From NCBI GenBank assembly GCA_963682135.1, contig OY821645.1:2400001-2464000 (forward strand): 64,000 bases of DNA, read 5' to 3'. The notes beneath the pieces are model-generated. The model had not been told where the DNA came from and searched no databases. It saw only the letters and a program-made list of their open reading frames with translations. Origin of the DNA: Methanothrix sp. Lineage in GTDB: Archaea; Halobacteriota; Methanosarcinia; Methanotrichales; Methanotrichaceae. The translations under genes were made by a program, and so were the position numbers. Positions within the stretch are counted from its first letter, which is position 1. Every line of letters begins with the position of its first letter. Of this stretch, positions 1-59,571 are shown piece by piece.

Positions 1-363
1 GCCGATCCTGGCCTTCTTCTGAATCTGATTGGCTACATCGTCCATGCTGGCACCGCTGGCAGCCAGGGAGCGGATCTCTTCCAAAGTGGCATCTTCCACG
101 GTGAAGTATTCATCGAGATCCTTTCTGTGGCCCCAGACATCTCCTTCCAGAAGCTCAATGCCCTGCATATCCAGGAATACCTGGATGGCATTGGACATGG
201 TCTTGCGGTAGGAGGGTGGTACCTGAATCATTCTCAGCCTGGGGCATCTCTGCATCAGATTGAGGAAGTCTACATTGCTGGCGCGAAAAGCAAGGTGAAC
301 CGTCTTTTCATTAGGGTTGAGATTTGGAATCTCATTTCTAGCGCTGACAACTCTAAGTCTCAT
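1..363 (-). CDS. DUF1699 family protein (3' end runs off the window)
   Basis: Manual translation from ATG at 363: MRLRVVSARNEIPNLNPNEKTVHLAFRASNVDF...GDVWGHRKDLDEYF, typical of Methanosarcinales DUF1699; no stop within the window. Confidence 0.8.
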   Translation of the reverse strand, partial: MRLRVVSARNEIPNLNPNEKTVHLAFRASNVDFLNLMQRCPRLRMIQVPPSYRKTMSNAIQVFLDMQGIELLEGDVWGHRKDLDEYFTVEDATLEEIRSLAASGASMDDVANQIQKKARIG

Positions 364-784
364 AGATTCTCCAGTTTAGCAAATAGTGTATCATAGTATT
401 AATAGACGCTTCAGCTGGACACATACGTACAGAACGGTATCAACAACACATATACAAGTCAATAAAACAAATCTCAAAACGCTGCTAAATCGATTTATTT
501 AAGTCCTCCTATCTTGAAGAAGACTATTGGCAATAATGAATAATTCACAGATACGAAAAAAGAGCAAGCATTTTAGAATTCGCCATTAATTGCTCCGGCA
601 ATGATTCTTACAGACTCCTGCTAGATCCATATTCTGATGATCATGTAGCAAGAATAGGAAAGCTTATGCCTAATCCTTCTGCTTGCCATTAGCCTTATAT
701 AACTTATCCGTGGTTCTGGTCCAGAATTGAAAAGCAAAGGCGATGGGGTTATAAAGAAGAGGGACCGTATAGGAGAAGATCTTC

Positions 785-2491
785 ATGGGCAGGGTTAAGC
801 TTACAGACACGGTTTTTAGGGATGCTCACCAGTCTCTTCTGGCCACCAGGATGAGGACCAGGGATATGCTACCCATAGCAGAGAAGATGGACCAGGTTGG
901 ATTCTTCTCATTGGAAACATGGGGCGGAGCGACGTTCGATACCTGTATTCGGTACCTGAACGAAGATCCCTGGGAAAGGCTAAGGGCATTAAAGAAGGCC
1001 ATGCCGAATACTCCGATGCAGATGCTGCTTCGCGGGCAGAACCTGGTCGGATACAGGCATTATGCTGACGATGTAGTGGATAAGTTTGTGGAGAAGGCAG
1101 CCAATAATGGTGTCGATATTTTCAGGATATTCGATGCCGTTAACGACATTCGCAACATGGAGCGGTCGATCACAGCTGCGAAAAAAATGGAGAAGCATGT
1201 TCAGGGTGGCATTAGCTACACCATCAGTCCCGTACATAGTATAGAGGTCTTCGTGCAGTTTGCCGTAAAGCTGGCGGAGCTCGGATGCGACTCGATCTGC
1301 ATCAAGGATATGGCAGGACTGATAACCCCTCAAAATGCCTATGACCTCATCCGGGCTTTGAAAAAGGAGGTTAACCTGCCGGTGAATCTCCATACGCACT
1401 GCACCAGCGGTATGGCTCAGATGAGCTACTTCCATGCCTGTCAGGCAGGAGTCGACATCCTGGATACGGCCATATCGCCGCTCTCCGGCGGCAGCTCGCA
1501 GCCCGCCACAGAGAGCCTGGTGGCATCACTGCAGGGAACGTCCTACGACACTGGCCTGGATCTGGAGCTGCTTACCGAGATCAAGAGGTACTTCGAGAAG
1601 ATTGTGGAAATTTATGCGCCCGTATTTAACCCTATAACGGCACGCGTGGATACCAATGTCCTCATCTATCAGGTTCCTGGCGGCATGCTTTCCAATCTGG
1701 TATCCCAGCTCATCGAGCAAAAGGCAATGGACAAGTGGGAGGATGTGCTGGCCGAGATACCTAAGGTTCGAAAGGACCTGGGATATCCTCCCCTGGTCAC
1801 CCCCACCAGCCAGATAGTAGGCACGCAAGCAGTTCTTAATGTAATTACTGGCGACCGATACAAGATGGTCCCCAAAGAGGTCAAAGACTATGTCAAGGGC
1901 CTCTATGGAAAGTCGCCGGCGATGATCGACCCCCAGGTCAGGCTGAAGGTGCTCTGCGATGAGGAGCCCATTACAGTGCGCCCCGCAGATCTGCTGCAGC
2001 CGGAATATGAAAACGCCAGGAAAGCAGTCGATGCTTTGAAATTGGCCAAACAGGAAGAGGATTATCTTACTTATGCTCTCTATCCACAGGTGGCCATTAA
2101 GTTCCTGCAGGGAGCAGCTGTAGAAGAGCAACTTGTCAAAAAGATGCCAGCGGCAGCAGCGTCAGCTCCTCTGAAGGCAGAACCTATGGCACTCAATGTA
2201 GAGATTGACGGCGAGTCCTATCTGGTCAAGGTTGCCCCTGCCGGCATGACTATCGCAGAGGCTGTGCCCAAAGCTCCCAAGGATGGATTAACCGTGCCCA
2301 TGCAAGGCGTTATCATTCGCTATAAGGTTAAAAAGGGCGAAAAGGTGGCCGAAGGAGATGCAGTGGTCGTCATAGAGGCTATGAAGATGGAGCAAAACAT
2401 CCTGGCCAATAAGAATGGAACTGTAAAAGAGATCTATATCAATGAAGGGACCACAGTCAATCCCGGCGACGTACTGATGTCCATAGAATAG
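785..2491 (+). CDS. pycB: Pyruvate carboxylase subunit B / oxaloacetate decarboxylase alpha-type carboxyltransferase with biotin carrier domain
   Basis: RDAHQSLLATRMR, GGATFD, HTHCTSG, and C-terminal biotinylation motif EAMKME. Confidence 0.9.
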   Translation: MGRVKLTDTVFRDAHQSLLATRMRTRDMLPIAEKMDQVGFFSLETWGGATFDTCIRYLNEDPWERLRALKKAMPNTPMQMLLRGQNLVGYRHYADDVVDKFVEKAANNGVDIFRIFDAVNDIRNMERSITAAKKMEKHVQGGISYTISPVHSIEVFVQFAVKLAELGCDSICIKDMAGLITPQNAYDLIRALKKEVNLPVNLHTHCTSGMAQMSYFHACQAGVDILDTAISPLSGGSSQPATESLVASLQGTSYDTGLDLELLTEIKRYFEKIVEIYAPVFNPITARVDTNVLIYQVPGGMLSNLVSQLIEQKAMDKWEDVLAEIPKVRKDLGYPPLVTPTSQIVGTQAVLNVITGDRYKMVPKEVKDYVKGLYGKSPAMIDPQVRLKVLCDEEPITVRPADLLQPEYENARKAVDALKLAKQEEDYLTYALYPQVAIKFLQGAAVEEQLVKKMPAAAASAPLKAEPMALNVEIDGESYLVKVAPAGMTIAEAVPKAPKDGLTVPMQGVIIRYKVKKGEKVAEGDAVVVIEAMKMEQNILANKNGTVKEIYINEGTTVNPGDVLMSIE

Positions 2492-2504
2492 AGGTGTATG
2501 ATAA

Positions 2505-3380
2505 GTGACCGTTAAGAGAGAACAGGTGCTCATTGAGGCTTTGCCTTACATTCGTGAGTTCTATGACAGCATCATGGTCTTCAAGATAGGGGGATCTATC
2601 ATGTCCGATCGCACCGTCCTGGAGGATTTCATACAGGACGTGGTGCTTTTGCGCTATATCGGCATTCATCCCATCATTGTGCACGGCGGCGGACCAGAGA
2701 TCTCCCAGGCCATGGAGAAATTCGGCAAGAAGGCCGAGTTCGTGGGAGGCCTGCGTGTCACCGATAAAGAGACACTGGGCATCGCACGCATGGTATTGCT
2801 GGGCAATATCAACGCGGAGCTTGTTAATCTCATCGGCAAGCATGGTGGCAAGGGCATTGGACTTTCCGGCCAGGACGGCATGTTCCTTAAGGCCAGGAAG
2901 AAGGCACTGCTCAAGGTGGAGGGCATGGAGCCTGTGGACCTGGGATTCGTGGGCGATGTGGATAAGGTGGACCCGGAGATACTCATGATCATGGCCGGCA
3001 AGGGCTATATTCCTGTCATCTCTCCAATTGCGGCAGATGGCGAGGGCAATAACCTCAATGTTAATGCCGATACTGTGGCCGGAGCTGTGGCCGTGGCCAT
3101 GCGGGCCAAGAAGCTCTTCTCCATCACCGATGTGGAAGGCGTGCGCATGAATCCAAATGACCCGGCAAGCGTCATCTCTGAGTTTCCTGCTTCTGACTTC
3201 GACCGCTTGGTGGCGGAGGGCGTCATCAAGGGCGGCATGATCCCAAAGGTGGAAGCCTGCGTTGCAGTAGTGCGAAGCGGTGTGGAGAAAGCCCACATCA
3301 TAGACGGCAGAAAGCATCATGCCATACTGCTGGAGCTGCTCACCACGGAAGGCGTGGGCACCATGATCCGCAGAAGCTAA
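2505..3380 (+). CDS. argB: Acetylglutamate kinase
   Basis: LIEALPYI, KIGG, VHGGGPEI, GLRVTD, NVNAD, GGMIPKV motifs. Confidence 0.95.
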   Translation: MTVKREQVLIEALPYIREFYDSIMVFKIGGSIMSDRTVLEDFIQDVVLLRYIGIHPIIVHGGGPEISQAMEKFGKKAEFVGGLRVTDKETLGIARMVLLGNINAELVNLIGKHGGKGIGLSGQDGMFLKARKKALLKVEGMEPVDLGFVGDVDKVDPEILMIMAGKGYIPVISPIAADGEGNNLNVNADTVAGAVAVAMRAKKLFSITDVEGVRMNPNDPASVISEFPASDFDRLVAEGVIKGGMIPKVEACVAVVRSGVEKAHIIDGRKHHAILLELLTTEGVGTMIRRS

Positions 3381-3385
3381 AGGAG

Positions 3386-3417
3386 TTGAGGGCGGGGCCA
3401 AGCCAAACCGCCCTTAA
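3386..3417. terminator. Hairpin between convergent argB and peptidase genes
   Basis: TTGAGGGCGG...CCGCCCTTAA inverted repeat between the two stop codons. Confidence 0.35.
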
Positions 3418-3445
3418 AATCTCCCAAAAATGTTTAAAATCTTTC

Positions 3446-4336
3446 CTAAATATTGAACATGCCGGTGTCAACCCATTCGGCTTTCAGCAGTGACCACCAA
3501 TCGCTGGCCAGACCGTTTAGGACATAATCGTACGGCAACCAGCCATAGCCTTTGCTGCCCCAACCTATGCCCCAGCTATTCCTGATCAATAAGGCCCCTT
3601 TAGTGGATTTTTTATTATTGGCGTTGGTGATGACCTTCGCGTCATCGTATCCCACTGCATCTATGGCATGACCTCCCATCACTTTTTCGCCACTAGCTGG
3701 ATATGGTATCTCGCCGGATGCAGAAGCTTGACTGATTGAGCTGTAGACTGTGAATCCGAACATGGAAGGCAGTCCTGCAGAGAGGTTTTCCTTTATGGAC
3801 GTCAATAGTTTCGCTTTAGCAGTTCCTGGTGGGTCGTATCGGTAGTACTGGAGCGCCTTATAGTTCTTCGCGAATGAATACAAAAATGCGTTAGGTTCCT
3901 CATCGAACTTGCCGATTATGTATTGATAGTATTTTTCAGGTGGAACTCCGAAGAGAAGCATGGCTTCCGCAGTAGTCCTGAGGTACGCGCCGGTATCGCC
4001 GGTGACGCCCATGAGATTTCTGGTGGTCTTGTAAAGGAATAGACGGGAAGCGTCGAGATATGAATTAGCGGTTTTCTTCTCAAAGTACTCGAATATGCCC
4101 ACACCCGCGTTTGCTGTACATGAACCTAGCTGGCCCTGGTCTTCAATTGGAGGGCACCAGGCCCTCAAGTCTGCTGAAGCAGGCGTCGCTTTAGGGAAAG
4201 CGATCTTGCCGAGCAAGTCCTTAATTGCGGGTGTATTAATGGTGTAGTCTCTGATATCTGGCAGTTCGCGCAGCCATCCCATTCCTATAAATCCTTCTTT
4301 CTCCAGCCCCAGCTCATCAGCTCTTAATAATAACAT
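3446..4336 (-). CDS. Papain-like (C1A) cysteine peptidase
   Basis: DQGQLGSCTA (catalytic Cys), GGHAI (His), IRNSWG (Asn); ATG at 4336 follows a GGAGG RBS. Confidence 0.9.
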   Translation of the reverse strand: MLLLRADELGLEKEGFIGMGWLRELPDIRDYTINTPAIKDLLGKIAFPKATPASADLRAWCPPIEDQGQLGSCTANAGVGIFEYFEKKTANSYLDASRLFLYKTTRNLMGVTGDTGAYLRTTAEAMLLFGVPPEKYYQYIIGKFDEEPNAFLYSFAKNYKALQYYRYDPPGTAKAKLLTSIKENLSAGLPSMFGFTVYSSISQASASGEIPYPASGEKVMGGHAIDAVGYDDAKVITNANNKKSTKGALLIRNSWGIGWGSKGYGWLPYDYVLNGLASDWWSLLKAEWVDTGMFNI

Positions 4337-4438
4337 ATTGCTTCCTCCAATAATGACGCCAAAAAAAGTGCGGCGTTTCAAATTTTTTGGACACTAATCT
4401 AAGCGGAATCTATTTAAGTTTTTTGTATGTCCCTCAAA

Positions 4439-5704
4439 TCATTTCACCTTGATTGTCATCTCTGCAATATTGCTCATTACGTTAGATGCATTATCTTCTG
4501 CCTTGACTATGGCAATATATTCACCCATGCCTGCATTCGATCGCAATAATTTGAGATCGTAATGGGAAGATGGCATGCCTGAGAGCACTATCGGCCCGAT
4601 TATCTCCGATGCCTGTTCATCTTGTCTGACGGGTACCTTCGTATTGACAAAACCGATCTTGCTCTTATCTTTGATTATGGTAATATTATTCTTCGCGAAC
4701 TTTTCGTAATCTGTTCCTGGCACTGTGATATTCAGGATATCCTGCGAGATGTAATGAGTGAACCCATACGAATCCATTAATGCATTAAGCTGCCCATCCT
4801 CTCCGAAATAAGCCTGCGCACTGAAGTTCACTTTTTCATTCAGCTCAATGATGCAGGGGGCAGAGTAGGCGAGCAGACTGCTCAAATTCGCCATAACTCC
4901 CAGGTTATTGATTGCATATATCGCGCCCTTATCCTGGCCGTCTGCCGAAATTCTGAACCTGGCCCCTGGCCAGGTGAACTCCACCTCAGAGCTGCTGCCC
5001 GTCATTTCCTTCGTCTGTGCCCAGACGATCTCTCTGGTCTTATTGTCTACAATGTATTCTGTGGCGATCTTAAGATTGCCATCCGGGTCTGTGGCCACTG
5101 CCTTTATCTTCGAAGGGCTCTTTTCGCTCGCCGTATCAGATATAACTGAAATGGTAAGCTTGGGCTCTGGAGAGTGTCCGATAGCCTGAATCATCCAATT
5201 GGTCTGGTTCTGGGTGCTATTTTGCATACTCCAATTCGATATTCTGTTGGGATTTCTGGAGACCAGAACGGATCTGCCTGATGAAGGGGACTTGTCAACT
5301 CCCTGCCACACCCCGGCAAACTCGAAGAAGGCGATGAGAAAATTGCCGGATACCTTGACATCGGGCAGGTCAACTATTGACCAGGTCAGGTTATCACCGA
5401 AATATGAACTGGCTTTATCGGTAATCCTATACAGAAGAGATAGGTTTTGATCCCAAACCTCAATCACAAATATCTCGGATGGTGACGGCACAACCTGCTT
5501 TCCTAAAATGGCCACCTGGGATAGACTCCAATTATCGGCAGGAGCCGTGAAGACCACGCCGTGGCCCCTCTGTCCATCGATCCAGGCCGCATCTTCTACA
5601 CTGCCGTCATCATAAGTCAGGCTGACCATACTCGCGCTGACACAATCGAGGGTTAGTAATATGGCAATTGCCACCATTATGCAAGTCTTGCTCATTGATT
5701 TCAT
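4439..5704 (-). CDS. Secreted hypothetical protein
   Basis: 421-aa ORF with N-terminal signal peptide; overlaps nfeD stop. Confidence 0.7.
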   Translation of the reverse strand: MKSMSKTCIMVAIAILLTLDCVSASMVSLTYDDGSVEDAAWIDGQRGHGVVFTAPADNWSLSQVAILGKQVVPSPSEIFVIEVWDQNLSLLYRITDKASSYFGDNLTWSIVDLPDVKVSGNFLIAFFEFAGVWQGVDKSPSSGRSVLVSRNPNRISNWSMQNSTQNQTNWMIQAIGHSPEPKLTISVISDTASEKSPSKIKAVATDPDGNLKIATEYIVDNKTREIVWAQTKEMTGSSSEVEFTWPGARFRISADGQDKGAIYAINNLGVMANLSSLLAYSAPCIIELNEKVNFSAQAYFGEDGQLNALMDSYGFTHYISQDILNITVPGTDYEKFAKNNITIIKDKSKIGFVNTKVPVRQDEQASEIIGPIVLSGMPSSHYDLKLLRSNAGMGEYIAIVKAEDNASNVMSNIAEMTIKVK

Positions 5705-7056
5705 CTTCTCCCTGGTTTCACCAACAGTCTGGCACCTTCCTTGCCGGTGATCACAACATTCTCGCCTTTCTCTACCGTATCTTCCGCTTCTGCCTGCCAG
5801 TACTCTCCCTGGAAGAGCACGTAGCCCTCCCGGTCCAGCCTGTCAATGGCCACTGCTTCCTCTCCAACAATATGACCTAACAATGGCGGAGCAAACCGGG
5901 CTCGTGCTACCTTGTAAATGGCAAAGGCCAGGAATGCGCCTAAAATGAGCGAGGGCAGGATGATGGCCAGGGCCATAGACTTCTGGTAGCTTCCCGGCAC
6001 ATACCACTGGGGAAAGCTGGTGGGGATAAGAAGGATGCTGCCCACTATCACGCATATCAGCCCGGCTGCCGCCAGCATCCCAAAGGAATGGCTGTGCAGC
6101 TCTGCCAAGATCAGACCCAGGCCAAGCAGCAACAGAAAAACAGCACCTATATTCACACTATAGCCCATTCCGATCAGCCCTAAAGCCAGGGCTGCCACGC
6201 CCAATGCCTCTGAGCCGATGCCGGGACTGGACAGGCCGAAAACAAGGGCATAAAGGCCCACCAGCATGAGCAGCCCGGCAAGCGTCGGATCGGAGAGTAG
6301 CCTTAAGAGCTGCAAGTTTATAGGCGGGGAAAAGTGCTGCACAGCGACGGCCGCGGTGAGCAGGGTGGTATTCTTGACATGACTGCCGTTGATCTGATTT
6401 GCCAGGGTCTCGGGAGAAGGCGCGATATATTCGATCACTCCATAATCCATGGCCTCATCAGCATTAAGATTGAGATTGGAGACGACAAACTCTTTGGCAG
6501 CGGTCGTGTTTCGTCCGTGAGCTCTCGCTTTCTCCTCGATCAGGGCCACAATGGCATTAGTGGTCTTGCTGTCGTTGATAGGCTCGGTTTCGCCCAACGC
6601 TGAGAGCCGTACCGGCTGGGCTGAGCCTATTATGGCATGCGGCGCCATTGCCGCCACATCGGAGCCTATCAGGATGAGCGTTCCTGCCGACCAAGCTGCA
6701 GCACCCGAGGGATAGACATAGGCTATCACGGGTATCTCGGTTTCTTCTATCTGCCTGAGTATTTCATAGGTCTCTGTCAGGCCGCCGCCCGGCGTGTCCA
6801 ATAGAAGCATCACTGCCTGAAAGCCGCCCGCCTCTGCCTCCTGCAAAGCAGCAGCAACGATATCATCGCTGGCCGGCGTGATAGGGCCCTGCAGCTCTAC
6901 AGCCAAAACCGGTCCGGGATCGGCAGAGGCAATGGGAAGTCCCGGTAACAGTAGCAAGAACGATATGAGTAAAATGGTGGCTACTCTCTGCGTCCTGGGA
7001 GGAGATAGCCGGCCCGTTCTCCTCACAAATTCCGAGCAGGACCGGATCTTCTCCAT
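5701..7056 (-). CDS. nfeD: NfeD family membrane-bound serine protease (ClpP class)
   Basis: LDTPGG, AWSAG, IGSAQP, TM block, C-terminal OB domain with GEYWQA; adjacent to stomatin gene. Confidence 0.9.
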   Translation of the reverse strand: MEKIRSCSEFVRRTGRLSPPRTQRVATILLISFLLLLPGLPIASADPGPVLAVELQGPITPASDDIVAAALQEAEAGGFQAVMLLLDTPGGGLTETYEILRQIEETEIPVIAYVYPSGAAAWSAGTLILIGSDVAAMAPHAIIGSAQPVRLSALGETEPINDSKTTNAIVALIEEKARAHGRNTTAAKEFVVSNLNLNADEAMDYGVIEYIAPSPETLANQINGSHVKNTTLLTAAVAVQHFSPPINLQLLRLLSDPTLAGLLMLVGLYALVFGLSSPGIGSEALGVAALALGLIGMGYSVNIGAVFLLLLGLGLILAELHSHSFGMLAAAGLICVIVGSILLIPTSFPQWYVPGSYQKSMALAIILPSLILGAFLAFAIYKVARARFAPPLLGHIVGEEAVAIDRLDREGYVLFQGEYWQAEAEDTVEKGENVVITGKEGARLLVKPGRR

Positions 7057-7922: not shown

Positions 7923-8095
7923 ATTAACACCATAATATTAATTGTGCTCTTGTCTTAAATAAGTACCCTGCCGCAAAATCCTGCGGATGACCACTTATCA
8001 AAACCGCGGTATTGGCACTACCATGCAGGAAAGTATAGAGTCCCGAAACACTCGGGACTATACAAGACTAAGAAGAAATCTGTCGGGATTGTGCC

Positions 8096-8593
8096 CTAGC
8101 TTATCACCTTTGCGCTCTCTATCTTCACCTCTTTTACCGGCCGGTCATTGGCACCCTTCTTCACCTTGGCCATGGCATCCACCACATCCATGCCCTCGAT
8201 CACTTTCCCGAAGACCGGATGCTTGCTGTCCAGGAAGTTGTTGTCCACCAGGTTGATGAAGAACTGGCTGCCGCCCGTGTTGGGCCCGGCATTGGCCATG
8301 CTGATGGTGCCGCGATCGTTCCTGTTCTTGCGGCTCAGCTCATCCTTGATGGCATAGCCCGGTCCCCCACAGCCTGTGCCGGTAGGGTCTCCGCCCTGGA
8401 CCATGAAGCCGTCTATGATGCGGTGAAAGATGACTCCGTCATAAAATCCCTTCTCTGCCAGCTTCTGGAAGTTGCCCGATGTGATGGGCGTGTCCTTGTA
8501 AAGCTGGATTGTGATGTCACCCATACTGGTCATAAGCCGTACTTTGACACCGTCTGAATTTGATGCTCCTTCTGCCATATTTATCAATTCCAT
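8096..8593 (-). CDS. Cyclophilin-type peptidyl-prolyl isomerase (cytoplasmic)
   Basis: FHRIIDGFMVQGGDP, SMANAGPNTGGSQFFIN, HPVFG. Confidence 0.92.
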   Translation of the reverse strand: MELINMAEGASNSDGVKVRLMTSMGDITIQLYKDTPITSGNFQKLAEKGFYDGVIFHRIIDGFMVQGGDPTGTGCGGPGYAIKDELSRKNRNDRGTISMANAGPNTGGSQFFINLVDNNFLDSKHPVFGKVIEGMDVVDAMAKVKKGANDRPVKEVKIESAKVIS

Positions 8594-8611
8594 TTGTTAA
8601 TATCAAGATGA

Positions 8612-9148
8612 TTAAGAGACCATCTTTGCCTCTATTATCTTCACATCAGTGAGCGGTCGATCATTGGCGTCTTTTTGCACCTTGGCTATGGCGTCTACCA
8701 CATCCATGCCGGCAATCACCTTTCCAAAAGCTGGGTGTTTGCTGTCCAGGAAGCTGTTGTCCTCCAGATTGATGAAGAACTGGCTGCCGCCTGTGTTCGG
8801 TCCGGCGTTGGCCATGCTGATGGTGCCGCGCTCGTTTCGATTGTGATCGGTGAACTCATCTTTGATGGAATAGCCCGGTCCACCCATGCCCGTGCCCTCC
8901 GGATCTCCGCCCTGAATCATGAAGCCGTCTATGACTCTATGAAAGATTACACCATTGTAGAATCCCTTATCCACCAGGCTCTTGAAATTATCTGTCGTAA
9001 TGGGCATGTCGTCGTAAAGCTGGATTGTGATGTCGCCCATGCTGGTCTTTAAGAGAACTTTATTCGCGCCTTCCTCTGCAGTTGCAGACGAACATCCGGA
9101 TATTACCAGTACCAGGATGACTATGGGTAAATAAAATATGGTTTTCAT
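8612..9148 (-). CDS. Cyclophilin-type peptidyl-prolyl isomerase with signal peptide
   Basis: Same cyclophilin motifs; N-terminal hydrophobic leader ending ISGC. Confidence 0.92.
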   Translation of the reverse strand: MKTIFYLPIVILVLVISGCSSATAEEGANKVLLKTSMGDITIQLYDDMPITTDNFKSLVDKGFYNGVIFHRVIDGFMIQGGDPEGTGMGGPGYSIKDEFTDHNRNERGTISMANAGPNTGGSQFFINLEDNSFLDSKHPAFGKVIAGMDVVDAIAKVQKDANDRPLTDVKIIEAKMVS

Positions 9149-53602: not shown

Positions 53603-54763
53603 ATGATAATATTCTCCAAAGCCCTGGCGGATCAGGCCACTGTTTGGGAAGCACTGCGCGCCTCTGAGTCGTGCCAGAATCTGCCGCCTGATTTGCTGCG
53701 GTTCTCGGCCCAGTCAAAACCTGTGGTGATGTGGAATTTGACAGCGCACTGCAATCTGGCCTGCCGGCATTGCTACATGGATGCCAGCCGCGAGGCCCGG
53801 GAGGAGATGTCTCTGGAAGAGGGCATACATCTGGTGGATGAACTGGCGGATATGAAGGTGCCCATCCTTATCTTTACCGGAGGAGAGCCCCTTCTCAGTC
53901 GCAATTTCTACGCCCTGGCCTTCCATGCCCGTGAGGTGGGGCTACGCACTGTCATCTCCACCAATGGAACCTTGATCACCCCGGAGGTGGCCAGGCTCCT
54001 GGCGGAGGCCAAGATCAGATACGTGGGAGTGAGCCTGGACGCGGCTAAGCCGGAGCAGCACGATGCCTTTCGGGGCGTGGCAGGAGCGCATGCCCGGGCC
54101 TTGCAGGGCATCAAAAACGCCCGCGATGCCGGACTGAAGACCGGGCTACGCATCACACTCACACGCGACAACTGGCAGGATGTTCCTGCTCTGCTCAGTC
54201 TGGCATTGCAGGAGGGTATCCCCAGATTCTGTCTTTATCACCTTGTCCCAACGGGCCGGGGAGCGGGCATGGCCGACAGGGACGTCACGCCCGAACAAAG
54301 ACGCAGCGTTATCCGTCTGCTGGCTGAGGCGGCAGAGGAGCTGAAAGGCGAAAACATCGAGATTCTGACCACTGACTCGCCTATGGATGGGGCCTATTTG
54401 CTGGAACTCTTAAAGGATGATCCCCGCAGCGAGAACGTGAGAAAGCTGCTCACCAATGCCGGAGGCTGCTCCACGGGAGTAAAGGTTGCCAATATCAATC
54501 AGCGAGGTGATGTGCATCCCTGTCATTTCATGCCTCAGGTGGTGGTGGGCAATGTGCGGGAGCGTACCTTCCGGGATATCTGGATAGATCATCCAACACC
54601 CGAGCTGCAGGGGCTGCGGGATATCAAGTCCAGACTCAAAGGCGCCTGTGGAAGTTGCCAGTACCTGGATTTGTGCGGAGGATGCCGCCAGAAGGCTTAC
54701 CACTATCATGGAGACATATTGGCCGAGGATCCTACCTGCATTCTGGAGCAGAAGAGCCTCTGA
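53603..54763 (+). CDS. ahbC: Radical SAM/SPASM protein, probable AhbC (Fe-coproporphyrin III synthase, alternative heme pathway)
   Basis: KPVVMWNLT.HCNLACRHCY, YVGVSLD, RFCLYHLV, SPASM cysteines; located in the tetrapyrrole operon. Confidence 0.8.
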   Translation: MIIFSKALADQATVWEALRASESCQNLPPDLLRFSAQSKPVVMWNLTAHCNLACRHCYMDASREAREEMSLEEGIHLVDELADMKVPILIFTGGEPLLSRNFYALAFHAREVGLRTVISTNGTLITPEVARLLAEAKIRYVGVSLDAAKPEQHDAFRGVAGAHARALQGIKNARDAGLKTGLRITLTRDNWQDVPALLSLALQEGIPRFCLYHLVPTGRGAGMADRDVTPEQRRSVIRLLAEAAEELKGENIEILTTDSPMDGAYLLELLKDDPRSENVRKLLTNAGGCSTGVKVANINQRGDVHPCHFMPQVVVGNVRERTFRDIWIDHPTPELQGLRDIKSRLKGACGSCQYLDLCGGCRQKAYHYHGDILAEDPTCILEQKSL

Positions 54764-54840
54764 TCAATTTCTATTTTTTTTCTATCGTTAACCGTAAGTT
54801 ATAATTATGATCAGCAGTTATAATAAATGGGGGCTGTAAA

Positions 54841-54960
54841 TTGACGCACCATGAAGAAAAGAAACCGAAGAAGGATGAGCCAGAAGCGAAGGTAGATCCA
54901 ATCAAGCTCGGTGATAAGAGGGGCGGAAAGAAGAAGGGCCTGCTCGATACATGCGAATAA
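54841..54960 (+). CDS. Small basic hypothetical protein (39 aa)
   Basis: TTG-started ORF MTHHEEKKPKKDEPEAKVDPIKLGDKRGGKKKGLLDTCE with upstream TATA-like sequence and downstream T-tract. Confidence 0.4.
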   Translation: MTHHEEKKPKKDEPEAKVDPIKLGDKRGGKKKGLLDTCE

Positions 54961-55029
54961 ACGATTTTACGCCAGTATAATTTTTTGCTTTCTCGTGAAT
55001 CTCTAAGATATTATCAATAAAAATTGTTT

Positions 55030-55296
55030 TTACGCCTCTATTTCGTCGACCTGCTTATGTGCATTAGGTAGAAAGTCATGAACGCTATCATTTCCTCTTA
55101 TATTTTCCACATCATATCCGGTTTCTATTGGAACCTTCGATTTCTTAATCCATCTCACGTTCGTTCGTTCGTACGTTTCTCCGGTCGAATAACACCTGAC
55201 CATTGGTGCGCCAATAAATTCTACCCGCAAGCCGCATAACGGGCAAATGGCTATCTCAGCTTCTCCCTTTTCATTCTTGCATTCTGTATTAAACAA
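55030..55296 (-). CDS. Hypothetical protein with CxxC
   Basis: 88-aa ORF, AGGAG RBS, CPLC. Confidence 0.45.
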   Translation of the reverse strand: MFNTECKNEKGEAEIAICPLCGLRVEFIGAPMVRCYSTGETYERTNVRWIKKSKVPIETGYDVENIRGNDSVHDFLPNAHKQVDEIEA

Positions 55297-55647
55297 GTTT
55301 TATTCTCCTTGACGTACTTTTCGTGTGGTGTTTCTAATGAGATACTTCAAAGCAGAAATCACCCAAAGATTTGATCACAATGCATATTCTGCATATTTTC
55401 TATTTAAGTTTGTTTATGAAAGATTCATAACTTTTCATAACGATCGTCTGTCATGGTTTTTTTATCAGCCTCAGCACGTAAGTATCTGATTATTTTTTCA
55501 TAATTTCGTCGTTGCTCGAAACAAGCTGCAACTTAGCTCGAATTGATTTAAAAACGATGACAATATACAAACCATTATAATGAATTTGTGAAATTTAGTA
55601 TACGTGCTACAAATACTGATAAACTGAAATACTAGCGAATAATTCAT

Positions 55648-56257
55648 ACAGATGGCCGCATATTTGTTGTAGGCGATAAGCCCAGGCGAAAAAGCCGCAA
55701 GCGTGCCGATTACCTGCTTTGCTTTACACGTGATTTCAAGATCGCCGTTGTCGAAGCTAAAGCAAAATACAAGAGCCCAAGCGAAGGGCTGCAGCAAGCC
55801 AAAGAGTATGCACTGATGCTGGGGCTGAAATTCGCCTATGCCACCAACGGAGAAGGTATCGTCGAATTCGACTTCACCACTGGAAAGGAATGTTTTAGGG
55901 AAGCATTTCCTTCCCCGCAGGAGCTGTGGTCGCGATATTGCCGGGCATCAAAAATTGAGGACGAGCAGACCAAAGGACGAATTCTATCCCCCTACTACCA
56001 CTCGCCGGGAAAGGCTGCTCGCTACTACCAGGAGATTGCTATCAATCGATCGATTGAGGCCATACTGCAGGGCAAAAAGCGCGTTCTTCTGACCATGGCC
56101 ACGGGAACCGGCAAGACCTTCGTGGCCTTCCAGATCTGCTGGAAGCTTTGGGAGTCCGGCTGGAATGCGCGGGCCGAGAAGCGACGCCCTAGAATTCTCT
56201 ATCTGGCAGACAGGAATATTCTCATCGATGATCCCAAGGACAAGACTTTCACGCCCT
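55648..56257 (+). pseudogene. hsdR: Type I restriction enzyme HsdR fragment (EcoAI/EcoEI-like), truncated at both ends
   Basis: TDGRI..RADYLL..VVEAK..GLQQAKEYA..ATNG, RYYQEIAINR, MATGTGKT, ILYLADRNIL; stops at the hsdS-end repeat. Confidence 0.88.
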
Positions 56258-56342
56258 CAAGCGCCAACATGGCAAGACCGCCGCCGCCCTGGATGCGCTC
56301 CTGCCAGCTGTGCTGGAGAGGGCCTTTCGGGGCGAGCTCTAG
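56251..56342 (+). repeat. hsdS 3'-end direct repeat, copy 1
   Basis: Encodes ALKRQHGKTAAALDALLPAVLERAFRGEL*, the conserved C-terminal helix of type I HsdS. Confidence 0.85.
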
Positions 56343-56364
56343 GCCAAGATGCGGATATATAACC

Positions 56365-56634
56365 ATGAGGACTGAAATATCCATGATGAGTGAAGATGCC
56401 AGCATCGTCATCACAGTCGATGACATAAAGACATTTGAAAGGCTAAAGCTCATCTCACAGATGGCTCCTGTCAAAGAAATAATCAACTCCTTTAAGAGGA
56501 AGTACGGCTGCGGCCTCAAAGCATTCGAGGATCGAATAGCACGCCTTCCGGAGGACTTCGAGCGCTGGGACGATTTTATTGAGTGGAAGGCCTATGCAGA
56601 CAGCTTGAGAGATCTTGAAAAGAGAGAAATATAA
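56365..56634 (+). CDS. Small antitoxin-like protein (cassette 1)
   Basis: ..FKRKYGC..FE....WDDFIEWKAY.. resembles TumA-like antitoxins; own TATATAA box at 56356. Confidence 0.55.
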   Translation: MRTEISMMSEDASIVITVDDIKTFERLKLISQMAPVKEIINSFKRKYGCGLKAFEDRIARLPEDFERWDDFIEWKAYADSLRDLEKREI

Positions 56635-56639
56635 GGCTC

Positions 56640-56732
56640 GACGCCCTCAAGCGCCACCAGGCACAGACCGCCGCCGAGCTGGACGCGCTCCTTCCGGCTG
56701 TACTGGAGAGGGCCTTTCGGGGCGAGCTTTGA
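56640..56732 (+). repeat. hsdS 3'-end direct repeat, copy 2
   Basis: Encodes DALKRHQAQTAAELDALLPAVLERAFRGEL*. Confidence 0.85.
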
Positions 56733-56779
56733 GGAAAAAGCTTACATCTTGCATTTGATGATACTATTACGAGGATCTC

Positions 56780-58078
56780 ATGGTTGAAGGAATCACGCGC
56801 ATCTCTGTGAAGGGTTTTAAGTCCCTGGCTGAAGAATGCTCCCTTGAAATTCGCCCTCTGACGATATTGGCAGGTGCTAACAGCTCAGGTAAGTCGAGCA
56901 TAATGCAGCCGCTCTTGATGATGAAGCAGACTCTGGAAGCGAGTTACGATCCAGGCCCGCTCTTGCTTGACGGTCCCAATGTTCGCTTCACATCAGCAGA
57001 TCAGTTTCTTTCTCGATCGGGTGGCCAAAACCAGGGGCAATTTAGCGTGGGGCTTGAGATCGATGGCGCGATTTCATTTTACGAAACCTTCATTCGCAAG
57101 GCGCAAGAAGGAATGGAGATCGCTGAAATATCATATAAAGTTAATAGCAAGACCACCATCCTACGGCCTGAAATGACACGAGACGTGATTATATCTCATC
57201 AACAGGAGAGAGGATTGCCTAAAGATTATCAAAATAAAAAGTCAGAGTTTCTTAGGGGCTCTCTTAAAATAGAACGGGATAGATGCTTTTTGGAGCAAAA
57301 ATTGAGAGGAGATATAGTATTAAGTTTTCGTGATTGTAATTTAAGATTAAATTTTTTTGGGTCGATTTTAAGTCTCGTTCATTTGCCCGCACTGCGAGGC
57401 AACCCCGAAAGAAACTATAAAAGGACCTCTGTTGGCCCCAGGTTTCCAGGAACCTTTGAGATTTATGCCGCCAGTATAATTCACAACTGGCAATCAACCA
57501 AAGATCCACGACTCAATTATATGGGAGCTGCCCTTGAATTACTGGGTTTGACCTGGAAGGTCGGCTCAAGACAGGTCGATGATGTGAGTTTTGAGGTGAT
57601 GGTCGGCCGTCTCATTCATCAAGAAGGAAAAGATACCAATGATTTAGTTAGCATTGCAGATGTTGGATTTGGTGTATCCCAAACCTTGCCGATTCTTGTC
57701 GCACTTCTTGCAGCAGAGCCTGGCCAGATGGTCTACATCGAACAGCCCGAGATTCACCTGCACCCGCGCGCCCAGATGGCAATGGCTCAGATCCTGGCGG
57801 AGGCTGCTAACCGGGGCGTCCGAGTCGTGGCGGAAACACATAGTTCCCTATTGCTCCTGGGCGTTCAATCTCTTGTAGCCGAAGGCAAGCTCTCTCCAGA
57901 TAAGGTCAAGCTTCATTGGTTTAAGAGAAGGCCGGAGGACGGCATTACAGAAGTCTCCAGCGCTGACTTAGACAAAGCAGGTGCCTTTGGCGATTGGCCG
58001 GAGGATTTCTCCTCGGCGGAGATGGACGCAGATACTCGTTATATTCATGCCGCGGAAACGAGACTGGAGTCCAATTGA
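56780..58078 (+). CDS. ABC/AAA_15-type ATPase (DUF3696-like C-terminus), cassette 2
   Basis: GFKS, GANSSGKSS, VGFGVSQTLP, IEQPEIHLHPRAQ, ETHS, WPEDF. Confidence 0.85.
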   Translation: MVEGITRISVKGFKSLAEECSLEIRPLTILAGANSSGKSSIMQPLLMMKQTLEASYDPGPLLLDGPNVRFTSADQFLSRSGGQNQGQFSVGLEIDGAISFYETFIRKAQEGMEIAEISYKVNSKTTILRPEMTRDVIISHQQERGLPKDYQNKKSEFLRGSLKIERDRCFLEQKLRGDIVLSFRDCNLRLNFFGSILSLVHLPALRGNPERNYKRTSVGPRFPGTFEIYAASIIHNWQSTKDPRLNYMGAALELLGLTWKVGSRQVDDVSFEVMVGRLIHQEGKDTNDLVSIADVGFGVSQTLPILVALLAAEPGQMVYIEQPEIHLHPRAQMAMAQILAEAANRGVRVVAETHSSLLLLGVQSLVAEGKLSPDKVKLHWFKRRPEDGITEVSSADLDKAGAFGDWPEDFSSAEMDADTRYIHAAETRLESN

Positions 58079-58602
58079 TGTCATCTGGGGATTCAAAGCG
58101 GTTGGTCATTGACGCCTCCGTTGCTACATCTACTGGCGAGAGAGGTGTGCGGGGAGAACGGTGCCAGGCCTTCCTGAGGATTATGATTGATGATACATAC
58201 CATCGCTTGGTGATGACGCGAGAGATCGGTGCTGAATGGGATATACATTCTCATCCCTTTGCTCGCCGCTGGCGAAGAAGCATGAATGCCAAGAGAAGAG
58301 TCGATCGGCCAAATGTCGATCATGATGACGTATTTTGCCTGAAGATTGAAAGAGCAAGTCAAACTGAAAAGGCACTTTGCGCTATGAAGAAGGATCTTCA
58401 TCTCATACAAGCTGCAAAAACAACAGACAAACGTGTTATTTCTCTGGACGATACTGCCAGAAACTATTTTTCTGAAGTCTCAATCCAGGTGGGCGAGCTG
58501 AGGGACATTCTGTGGGTAAATCCTGTTAATGATGACGAGACGCCGACAAAATGGTTGACGGACGGGGCTCCGAACGAGGAGCAACGACGACTTGGCACAT
58601 GA
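58078..58602 (+). CDS. PIN-like protein coupled to the ATPase (cassette 2)
   Basis: LVIDASVA..KDLHLIQAA..VISLDD..WVNP; TGATG overlap with the ATPase. Confidence 0.65.
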   Translation: MSSGDSKRLVIDASVATSTGERGVRGERCQAFLRIMIDDTYHRLVMTREIGAEWDIHSHPFARRWRRSMNAKRRVDRPNVDHDDVFCLKIERASQTEKALCAMKKDLHLIQAAKTTDKRVISLDDTARNYFSEVSIQVGELRDILWVNPVNDDETPTKWLTDGAPNEEQRRLGT

Positions 58603-58604
58603 CC

Positions 58605-58697
58605 GACGCTCTCAAGCGCCACCAGTCCGAGACCGCCGCCGCCCTGGATGCGCTCCTGCCGGCTGTGCTGGAGAGGGCCTTTCGGGGCGAGCTTTGA
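58605..58697 (+). repeat. hsdS 3'-end direct repeat, copy 3
   Basis: Encodes DALKRHQSETAAALDALLPAVLERAFRGEL*. Confidence 0.85.
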
Positions 58698-58803
58698 AGT
58701 AGCCGCTCGCATCATTTTGCATTTCCGGGATTACTCCGCAAGAAGAATACTTTCGCCCGGCACGCGGTGAGCTTTTATGGCATTAACTCACTTGTCCCTT
58801 TGA

Positions 58804-59346
58804 ATGTTAAAACAAATGCAGCGAGACGCCATTTTGCTCTCGCTGATGAATGAGATGAGAGCAAAAGGCAGTTGGTGCGGCGAGACTCACATCCAGAAAT
58901 CTGTGTATCTCCTGCAAGAACTGCTGGATGTACCAATGAATCTCGAGTTCATACTCTACAAGCATGGACCTTACTCATTCGATCTGGCCGATGCAGTCAC
59001 CGCCATGCGGGCGGATAACCTGCTTGAGTATAAATTGCGTCGTCCCTACGGGCCAAGCCTTATCCCTACAAAAACAGGCCAGAATTTCCTGAATCAGTAC
59101 CCTAAGACGCAGGAGAAATACGCCGAAAGAGCGCAATTTGTTGCCGAGAAGATCGGGAAGATAGGTGTTGCAGAGCTGGAGCGTCTGGCCACTGCCCTTT
59201 ACGTCACACTCAACGAGAAATGTGCAGGAAATTCACGAGCAATCTTGATTACGAAGCTGAAGCCTCATATCAAAATCGAAGAGGCCGAAAAAGCTCTGGA
59301 AAACGTTGATGCCATGATAAAAGAGGTTGCTGAAAAAGGATTGTGA
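58804..59346 (+). CDS. YwgA/SocA(Panacea)-like winged-helix protein (cassette 3)
   Basis: GETHIQKSVYLLQ..F..YKHGPYSFDL..LERLAT. Confidence 0.6.
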   Translation: MLKQMQRDAILLSLMNEMRAKGSWCGETHIQKSVYLLQELLDVPMNLEFILYKHGPYSFDLADAVTAMRADNLLEYKLRRPYGPSLIPTKTGQNFLNQYPKTQEKYAERAQFVAEKIGKIGVAELERLATALYVTLNEKCAGNSRAILITKLKPHIKIEEAEKALENVDAMIKEVAEKGL

Positions 59347-59360
59347 AGTGGGCTGCATAC

Positions 59361-59571
59361 ATGAATTTCATGGTTGTTCTTTAGGAAGCAGAAGATGGTG
59401 GCTACATAGTAAGCTGCCCGGCACTTCCCGGATGCCGCTCCCAGGGCGATAGCATTGGAAGAAGCCTTGGAGAACATCAAAGAGGTGATAGAAGGCTGCG
59501 TGCAGTCTCTGGCGGAAGAGCGAACGAGGCTGCTGGGCGCTCCTGGTAGAATCGTAGAAGTAGCAGTCTGA
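59361..59571 (+). pseudogene. hicB: HicB antitoxin pseudogene
   Basis: MNFMVVL*EAEDGGYIVSCPALPGCRSQGDS/EEALENIKEVIEGC..; in-frame TAG and a frameshift. Confidence 0.75.

Follow-up and report, generated by a model that had tools for sequence, protein, structure and literature searches.

Little is understood, least of all for archaea, about the way in which integrase-less defence and toxin-antitoxin (TA) modules travel and accumulate in chromosomes, and a locus of the methanogen Methanothrix sp. raises the question in a particular form: why does the 3' end of hsdS, the specificity gene of type I restriction-modification (R-M) systems, recur between small modules of this kind? The DNA analysed here, referred to as the window, is a stretch of 64,000 nt (positions 2,400,001 to 2,464,000 of contig OY821645.1, GenBank assembly GCA_963682135.1), in which three direct copies of the hsdS 3' end, hereafter called tails, are separated by different cargo genes. 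The explanation favoured here, with moderate confidence, is that these relic hsdS ends provide portable homology for recombinase-independent cassette exchange by ordinary homologous recombination.

Three hsdS ends and their recurrence in Methanothrix

The three tails, of 92-93 nt each, are located as follows.

56251..56342 (+): hsdS tail copy 1, 30 codons with a TAG stop, fused to an hsdR fragment
56640..56732 (+): hsdS tail copy 2, 30 codons with a TGA stop
58605..58697 (+): hsdS tail copy 3, 30 codons with a TGA stop

A repeat search placed them in a single family (56249-56358, 56639-56748 and 58604-58713, with spacings of 390 and 1965 nt), and a search of the genome itself (3.04 Mb, one contig) returned exactly three tails at 90-100% identity, the next-best match having an E value of 0.25. 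Identity between the aligned copies runs from ACGCC through the stop codon, with copies 2 and 3 agreeing a few bases further, and every copy remains in frame to its stop, the final 17 residues being the same in all three. Copy 2 starts 5 nt past the TAA of an 83-codon open reading frame (ORF) at 56383-56634, and copy 3 starts 2 nt past the TGA of the ORF at 58078-58602. Nine sites differ between copies 2 and 3, of which the four in the 3' half affect third-codon positions only. Repeat search, alignment and own-genome search thereby bear out what an earlier note on this DNA had described, namely three direct repeats that are in-frame hsdS 3' ends with stops, two of them beginning 5 and 2 nt past the preceding stop, and with largely synonymous differences in the 3' half.

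The single other Methylase_S match in the genome (G000:C1:2934640-2934963) belongs to an open frame of 465 aa, ~480 kb away from the array, in which no copy of the tail was detectable. A blastn search with 56251-59346 gave no match in either the plasmid or the phage collection.

Tails were found in 15 of 24 same-genus genomes in a first draw, versus 0 of 16 relatives outside the genus; in the whole genus sample (Methanothrix-type), 39 genomes out of 59 contained them, and among the 30 of high quality the number was 24. In a locus set made up of 47 fetched loci and the window, 74 tails were located by nhmmer over the 48 loci, often 2-4 per locus; 55 of the 74 are near-complete, and only 7 form the end of a full-length hsdS. 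Metagenome contigs showed the same feature, with tails in 41 of 52 pattern matches and two or more tails in 18.

Intact loci are ordered hsdR-hsdM-hsdS-cargo. Complete and uninterrupted hsdR-hsdM-hsdS sets are present in loci L052, L058 and L066 of relatives, and sets with split genes in L060 (hsdR in two ORFs) and L051 (hsdS in two ORFs); the set in the window is incomplete, comprising only an hsdR fragment and the three hsdS tails. In L060, hsdR-hsdM-hsdS-HicB occupies the chromosomal site at which the window has its array, with a radical-SAM gene on one side and a DUF1638 gene on the other.

The cargo of relatives includes the ATPase pair, an HD pair, HicB-like genes, TumA/TumE, Gabija (GajA/GajB), DarT-DarG, a PIN_2 pair and AAA_21 with DUF4276. 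Directly behind hsdS stand the NsnB-like ATPase pair, the HD pair, HicB or Gabija, and behind hsdS tail stubs stand DarT-DarG and TumA/TumE. Module order also differs, being TumA-like, ATPase pair, DarG-C-like and HicB pseudogene in the window, HD pair and then ATPase pair in L051, ATPase pair, HD pair, HicB and TumA in L052, and HicB, TumA and HD pair in L053. Across many loci and metagenome contigs, the tails accordingly recur between variable cargo in variable order, as had been proposed, and no invariant arrangement emerged among these four loci. Throughout this genus of environmentally dominant methanogens, a defence hotspot appears to be structured by a short, highly conserved gene end.

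A full-length hsdS end precedes the ATPase module in L045, L052 and L058, the HD/SocA module in L051 and the HicB module in L046 and L060, and the spacers behind full-length hsdS are the same as those behind stubs. Since the modules are found behind true full-length hsdS ends, each repeat is taken as the leftover of an hsdS end, and the proposal that the repeats are regenerated attachment sites is not supported.

Exchange within the tails

Three spacers follow the tails in the window.

56343..56382 (+): spacer after copy 1, AT-rich, with a TATA-like motif ~25 nt before the ATG and a putative promoter role
56733..56779 (+): spacer class A, between tail and ATPase gene, conserved in 15 genus tails; downstream class D1
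58698..58803 (+): spacer class B, bearing the scar of a deleted HD-domain gene

Spacer class A is also found behind the full-length hsdS of L045, L052 and L058. The junction at copy 3, consisting of the partner-ORF stop, 2-4 nt and the tail, was designated class U1 and is shared by 7 loci of the genus. Pairing between upstream junction classes and downstream spacer classes is free, with the ATPase spacer located behind at least 9 upstream classes and the end of the partner ORF preceding 3 spacer classes and 2 unclassified (singleton) spacers.

A hybrid tail was found in G053, one of the two relatives that stand closest by core genes (91% identity). G053 carries cargo 1, one tail and spacer B, and the window carries cargo 1, tail 2, the ATPase pair, tail 3 and spacer B, the flanks of the two being 97.7% and 82% identical. 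At the nine sites that distinguish tails 2 and 3, the G053 tail agrees with tail 2 at all three in its 5' part, with tail 3 at all five in its 3' part and with neither at one, which places the crossover mid-tail, between positions 25 and 38, and not at the boundary. The G053 tail is the footprint of a single crossover within the tail that added or removed a 1965-bp unit, and recombination inside the repeat is thereby tied to the acquisition or removal of one cassette. In 13 comparisons of filled with single-tail arrays, some of them redundant and most noisy in pattern because the genomes are divergent, the last informative site corresponded to the downstream tail in all 13, and the first to the upstream tail in 9.

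Tails inside an array evolve in concert. Mean tail identity was 0.842 within arrays (17 pairs) versus 0.768 between genomes (1463 pairs), a contrast reached in 0 of 5000 label shuffles, although kinship within one genus makes this permutation result overstate the support. In the orthologous arrays L037 and L050, paralogous tails (0.911 and 0.957) are more alike than orthologous ones (0.837 and 0.88), with a private indel variant common to the paralogues, and this contrast is independent of kinship inflation. The identity of the ATPase module to that of the window is uncoupled from core identity (G010, core 90 and module 71; G052, core 74 and module 81). The hybrid tail of G053, the free pairing of classes and the concerted evolution of tails together support the idea of tails as joints for the gain and loss of modules.

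Under exchange by homologous recombination, each tail would have come along with a module that once followed an hsdS gene, and would act as portable homology because it is nearly identical between alleles. The unit would consist of a tail, a promoter-bearing spacer and genes, and tail-to-tail homologous recombination combined with gene conversion would insert, delete and reorder such units, with neither a dedicated recombinase nor a precise attachment site being required. The recombination would be expected to depend on RadA and to proceed via excised circles or unequal exchange, and spread by this route would explain why the tails are mostly complete. R-M genes would be lost through microhomology deletions.

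Besides the kinship mentioned above, several observations weigh against this explanation. The 3' block is well conserved even in frame-broken stubs, which would be compatible with a DNA-level function or a precise mechanism, and the stubs appear, by an unquantified comparison, more alike than the synonymous sites of flanking core genes (0.46-0.82). Homologous recombination alone leaves the formation of the first 'gene stop, tail' junction unaccounted for, and gives no reason why many independent junction classes should lie within ~12 nt of one point with the preceding stop 2-9 nt away. The near-complete tails (55 of 74) are more numerous than simple neutral trimming would leave. Furthermore, no excised circle, tail-to-tail joint or deletion variant was present in the assembled contigs of public runs, in which rare variants are lost. 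The excess of complete tails and the starts close to a stop are features that a mobility filter, by which only whole-tail units spread, or cutting at the homology edge would produce.

A tentative proposal, unlikely as it stands, treats the tail start as a mechanistically preferred joining or docking point for the capture and exchange of promoter-bearing, integrase-less defence cassettes between Methanothrix species, amounting to a recombinase-free archaeal analogue of the integron. Flap clipping at the homology edge with end joining, or an unrecognised trans-acting enzyme, are possible variants of such docking.

Relics, attachment sites and known systems

Among the alternatives to portable homology, the one that survives best, though its probability is low, regards the tails as passive relics of successive hsdS genes, with tail DNA serving the downstream module, for instance as a promoter element, and having no real role in rearrangement. 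It would accommodate the occurrence of the ATPase, HD/SocA and HicB modules each behind a full-length hsdS somewhere in the genus, the conserved 3' block of frame-broken stubs and the TATA/BRE-like motifs just past the tails. These motifs, judged promoter-like by eye from the sequence, are located in the spacers and not in the tails, and the G053 hybrid tail, the free pairing of classes, the permuted orders and the concerted evolution all require exchange within tails, contrary to a passive role.

Decay of the tails is nevertheless evident, as 24 of 48 near-complete stubs are frame-broken, and second-codon positions account for 5 of 66 changes in full-length tails versus 76 of 271 in broken stubs. 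A homologous hsdR-hsdM-hsdS set with a single tail and no array was observed in a bacterial metagenome-assembled genome (L102, a Hydrogenophilales contig, 2700-7015), which suggests that the R-M family is common to both domains. The L102 tail shows 84-86% DNA identity to the archaeal tails versus ~70% for hsdM; much of the tail DNA conservation in functional genes would therefore reflect protein constraint, and a strongly constrained tail also suits the passive-relic alternative. That DNA identity sets in so sharply in full-length hsdS had been considered as proof of recombination, an argument weakened by L102, since protein constraint and GC-rich codons explain much of it.

An integron-like site-specific system, as inferred in the earlier note, is quite improbable. 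Here the tail start would be an attachment site at which integrase-less cassettes are inserted by a trans-acting recombinase, with the hsdS end being regenerated. About 9 of 26 stub junction classes fall within -10 to -2 of a common point, as such a site would predict, and the preceding stop is close to the tail at the partner ORF (2-4 nt), the TumA-like gene (5 nt), the SocA-like gene (4-7 nt) and one TumE junction (9 nt). In the three window stubs, and in stub classes with 2-9 nt from the end of the upstream gene to the tail, hsdS is reduced to its last 30 codons. Metagenome loci L127 and L151, in which an intact hsdRMS is followed by a tail, the ATPase pair and a second tail, resemble an insertion with a duplicated target, as do L058 and L107 with a partial second tail, and the completeness of most tails is likewise what this system would yield.

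A precise attachment boundary is contradicted by the left tail edges, which are ragged across 31 junction classes, extending from beyond -12 to +25 (automated junction offsets over-extend by a few chance matches and were used for spread only), and longer hsdS remnants exist among the stubs, with up to 171 open codons upstream of the tail. No attC-type imperfect palindrome was apparent in tails 2 and 3, whose single-strand folds on both strands were no better than those of 200 shuffles (z of -0.02, -0.09, +1.35 and +1.39). Four PF00589 matches were detected in the genome, the nearest at ~2.807 Mb, ~350 kb from the array at 2.456 Mb, and interrupted by stops; no recombinase family was found among ~30 cargo proteins scanned, and none is linked to the array, in keeping with the absence of a nearby recombinase remarked on earlier. 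The mid-tail crossover of G053 and the junction microhomologies of 7 nt and 4 nt also argue against site-specific insertion. What stands of the integron-like cassette array is that tails form joints between variable cargo; the ragged edges, microhomology, lack of an attC-like fold and broken stubs speak against the remainder.

The common start formerly proposed for the three copies holds in so far as their alignment begins at ACGCC, and the start of copy 1 is a by-product of a deletion in hsdR, of which the following fragment remains.

55636..56250 (+): hsdR pseudogene fragment, without ~37 N-terminal codons and everything past helicase motif I

The fragment matches Pfam ResIII (1.7e-15), with weaker HSDR_N matches, and is 89% identical to hsdR of L052 and L060; no in-frame start is available from the upstream stop to 55816. 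Intact hsdR genes of relatives (6 of 6) read ACGCCCTT right past the fusion point of the window, and the hsdR-tail 1 junction therefore falls inside a 7-nt microhomology, ACGCCCT, common to native hsdR and the tail. Judging from this sequence, copy 1 arose from hsdR by a 7-nt microhomology deletion. The hsdR-tail fusions of L042 and L079, which have other hsdR breakpoints and tail edges at ~-7 and ~-9, are microhomology deletions as well. Copy 1 of L037 was rejected as an hsdR-tail fusion, its upstream sequence being a degenerate hsdS remnant common to L050 and L070. An 88-aa cysteine-containing ORF without a family match (window 55030-55296, minus strand; cluster C38) adjoins the hsdR side in at least 5 genomes.

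An assembly chimera of strain variants collapsed or joined at the repeat, a concern raised earlier, is extremely improbable: short-read unitigs end within tails 1 and 3, the usual behaviour at repeats, and a low-depth contig of run X1 (depth 2.7; window 56217-56255) continues as intact hsdR past the tail 1 junction, but a 2351-nt contig (56309-58659, 0 mismatches) spans tail 2 in runs of two studies, the hsdR-tail 1 junction is spanned by an 88-nt contig of run X1 and a long contig of run X3 (54500-56304), the genome is a single contig, and similar arrays are present in many independent assemblies. The X1 sample seems to contain a minor strain or relative whose hsdR is undeleted.

Portable homology at hsdS-derived repeats appears to have its closest mechanistic analogue in the pneumococcal tvr locus (SpnIV), where hsdS direct repeats guide the excision and reintegration of a segment including toxin-antitoxin genes, and inefficient excision independent of both recombinase and recA occurs at longer repeats (PMC6265443). 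The tvr locus encodes the recombinase TvrR and reshuffles target-recognition domains (TRDs), resulting in a change of specificity (PMC6265443). As in tvr, direct repeats in hsdS-derived sequence surround a movable segment with TA genes. Unlike tvr as described there, the Methanothrix repeats contain no TRD and have no linked recombinase, the cargo consists of defence and TA modules, and the R-M system of the window is dead. No circular form of the Methanothrix arrays was observed in the assembled contigs.

Integron arrays consist of stacked small units with a similar repeat right past the preceding stop, and integrons occur in archaea. The Methanothrix arrays likewise contain stacked small units bounded by a repeat past a stop, with cargo and order varying among relatives, but they possess no IntI and no attC-type hairpin, their edges are ragged, the repeat is a gene relic and the cassettes appear to carry their own promoters. 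Like defence islands and hotspots, they occupy a fixed site, between the radical-SAM and DUF1638 genes, with differing defence content per genome; unlike these, their turnover is organised by an internal repeat and not by flanking core genes alone.

Accessory genes in type I R-M loci are exemplified by the rlo genes of Campylobacter. Another instance is prrC, which is embedded in EcoprrI (PMC12707154). Small defence or abortive-infection genes beside hsd genes are shared with prrC-type loci, where OLD/ABC-type ATPase pairs are typical, and defence and TA genes directly adjoin hsd genes in relatives of the window. Repeated hsdS 3' ends between stacked modules are not described for prrC-type loci, and no account of them was found in the literature searched, with subscription journals and supplements outside its scope. 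If portable homology of this kind holds more widely, the conserved 3' ends of R-M specificity genes could provide defence-island turnover with a general scaffold and serve as a practical landmark in the search for new defence modules.

Cargo of the window and unusual loci of relatives

The cargo between and behind the tails of the window consists of five ORFs or ORF remnants.

56383..56634 (+): TumA-like orphan antitoxin candidate, 83-codon ORF, with the TumE partner absent here
56780..58078 (+): AAA_15/AAA_21 (OLD/ABC-type) ATPase, NsnB-like (Pfam AAA_21 1.2e-26, AAA_15 1.2e-24; PADLOC NsnB 1.2e-57)
58078..58602 (+): 174-aa partner ORF, possibly PIN-like, always accompanying the ATPase gene
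58804..59346 (+): DarG-C-like 180-aa ORF, earlier called SocA-like (PADLOC DarG 1e-12; NCBIfam antitoxin_DarG 2.8e-11, below cut-off)
59361..59571 (+): HicB-like pseudogene with TAG at codon 8, aligned to its homologue by eye

The first ORF gave no family match of its own in Pfam, NCBIfam and PADLOC scans, and was grouped by blastp in cluster C18 with ORFs that precede and overlap the TumE gene (L035, L052 and L059), this TumE gene of relatives matching PF20126 at 7.4e-22. The former description 'antitoxin-like' can accordingly be kept in the sense of a homologue of the gene located 5' of the TumE toxin gene. The 174-aa partner ORF has 14 homologues with 66-87% identity and no Pfam, NCBIfam or PADLOC match. 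Its AlphaFold2 model (14 sequences) reached a pLDDT of 43 and was unusable, and the earlier PIN label has an Atlas lead to PIN clusters as its sole pointer.

The ORF at 58804-59346 was previously likened to SocA/YwgA, but its resemblance is to the DarG C-terminal part, at a score below the curated cut-off. In relatives, the DarG-C-like gene is paired with a 439-aa HD/HD_assoc_2 gene. Bases 1-81 past the tail in spacer B match the upstream region of the HD gene in L052 and L053, and bases 105-203 past copy 3 match the start of the gene downstream of the HD gene in the same loci. The window ORF is consequently an orphan, its HD-domain partner having been deleted. An intact homologue of the HicB-like pseudogene (L037:11900-12118) matches PF15919 HicB_lk_antitox at 1.5e-11. 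The window array, in which one ATPase pair is intact beside a pseudogene and two orphan antitoxin-like genes, is largely decayed and mostly a relic.

Additional genes were observed within the hsd operons of some relatives. In L040 (G009:C17), a gene for a 392-aa DDE_3/IS630-type transposase (PF13358, 2.6e-23) lies between the hsdS body and the tail, at ~7926-9104 in the oriented locus (raw L040:9898-11073, plus strand), and hsdS there is therefore split by an insertion sequence. A 648-aa HATPase_c_3 protein is encoded between hsdM and hsdS in L052 (11394-13337, minus strand), and a 345-aa PDC-S11-like (NucS_C/DUF4268) protein between hsdR and hsdM in L051 (5574-6608, plus strand), both operons being otherwise intact. 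In metagenome contig L106, which has a GC content of 0.39, two tails surround a 3-kb AT-rich segment (61-3061, oriented) whose two ORFs on the minus strand (418 and 383 aa) match no cargo family seen elsewhere, and this segment may be a further, recently acquired module.

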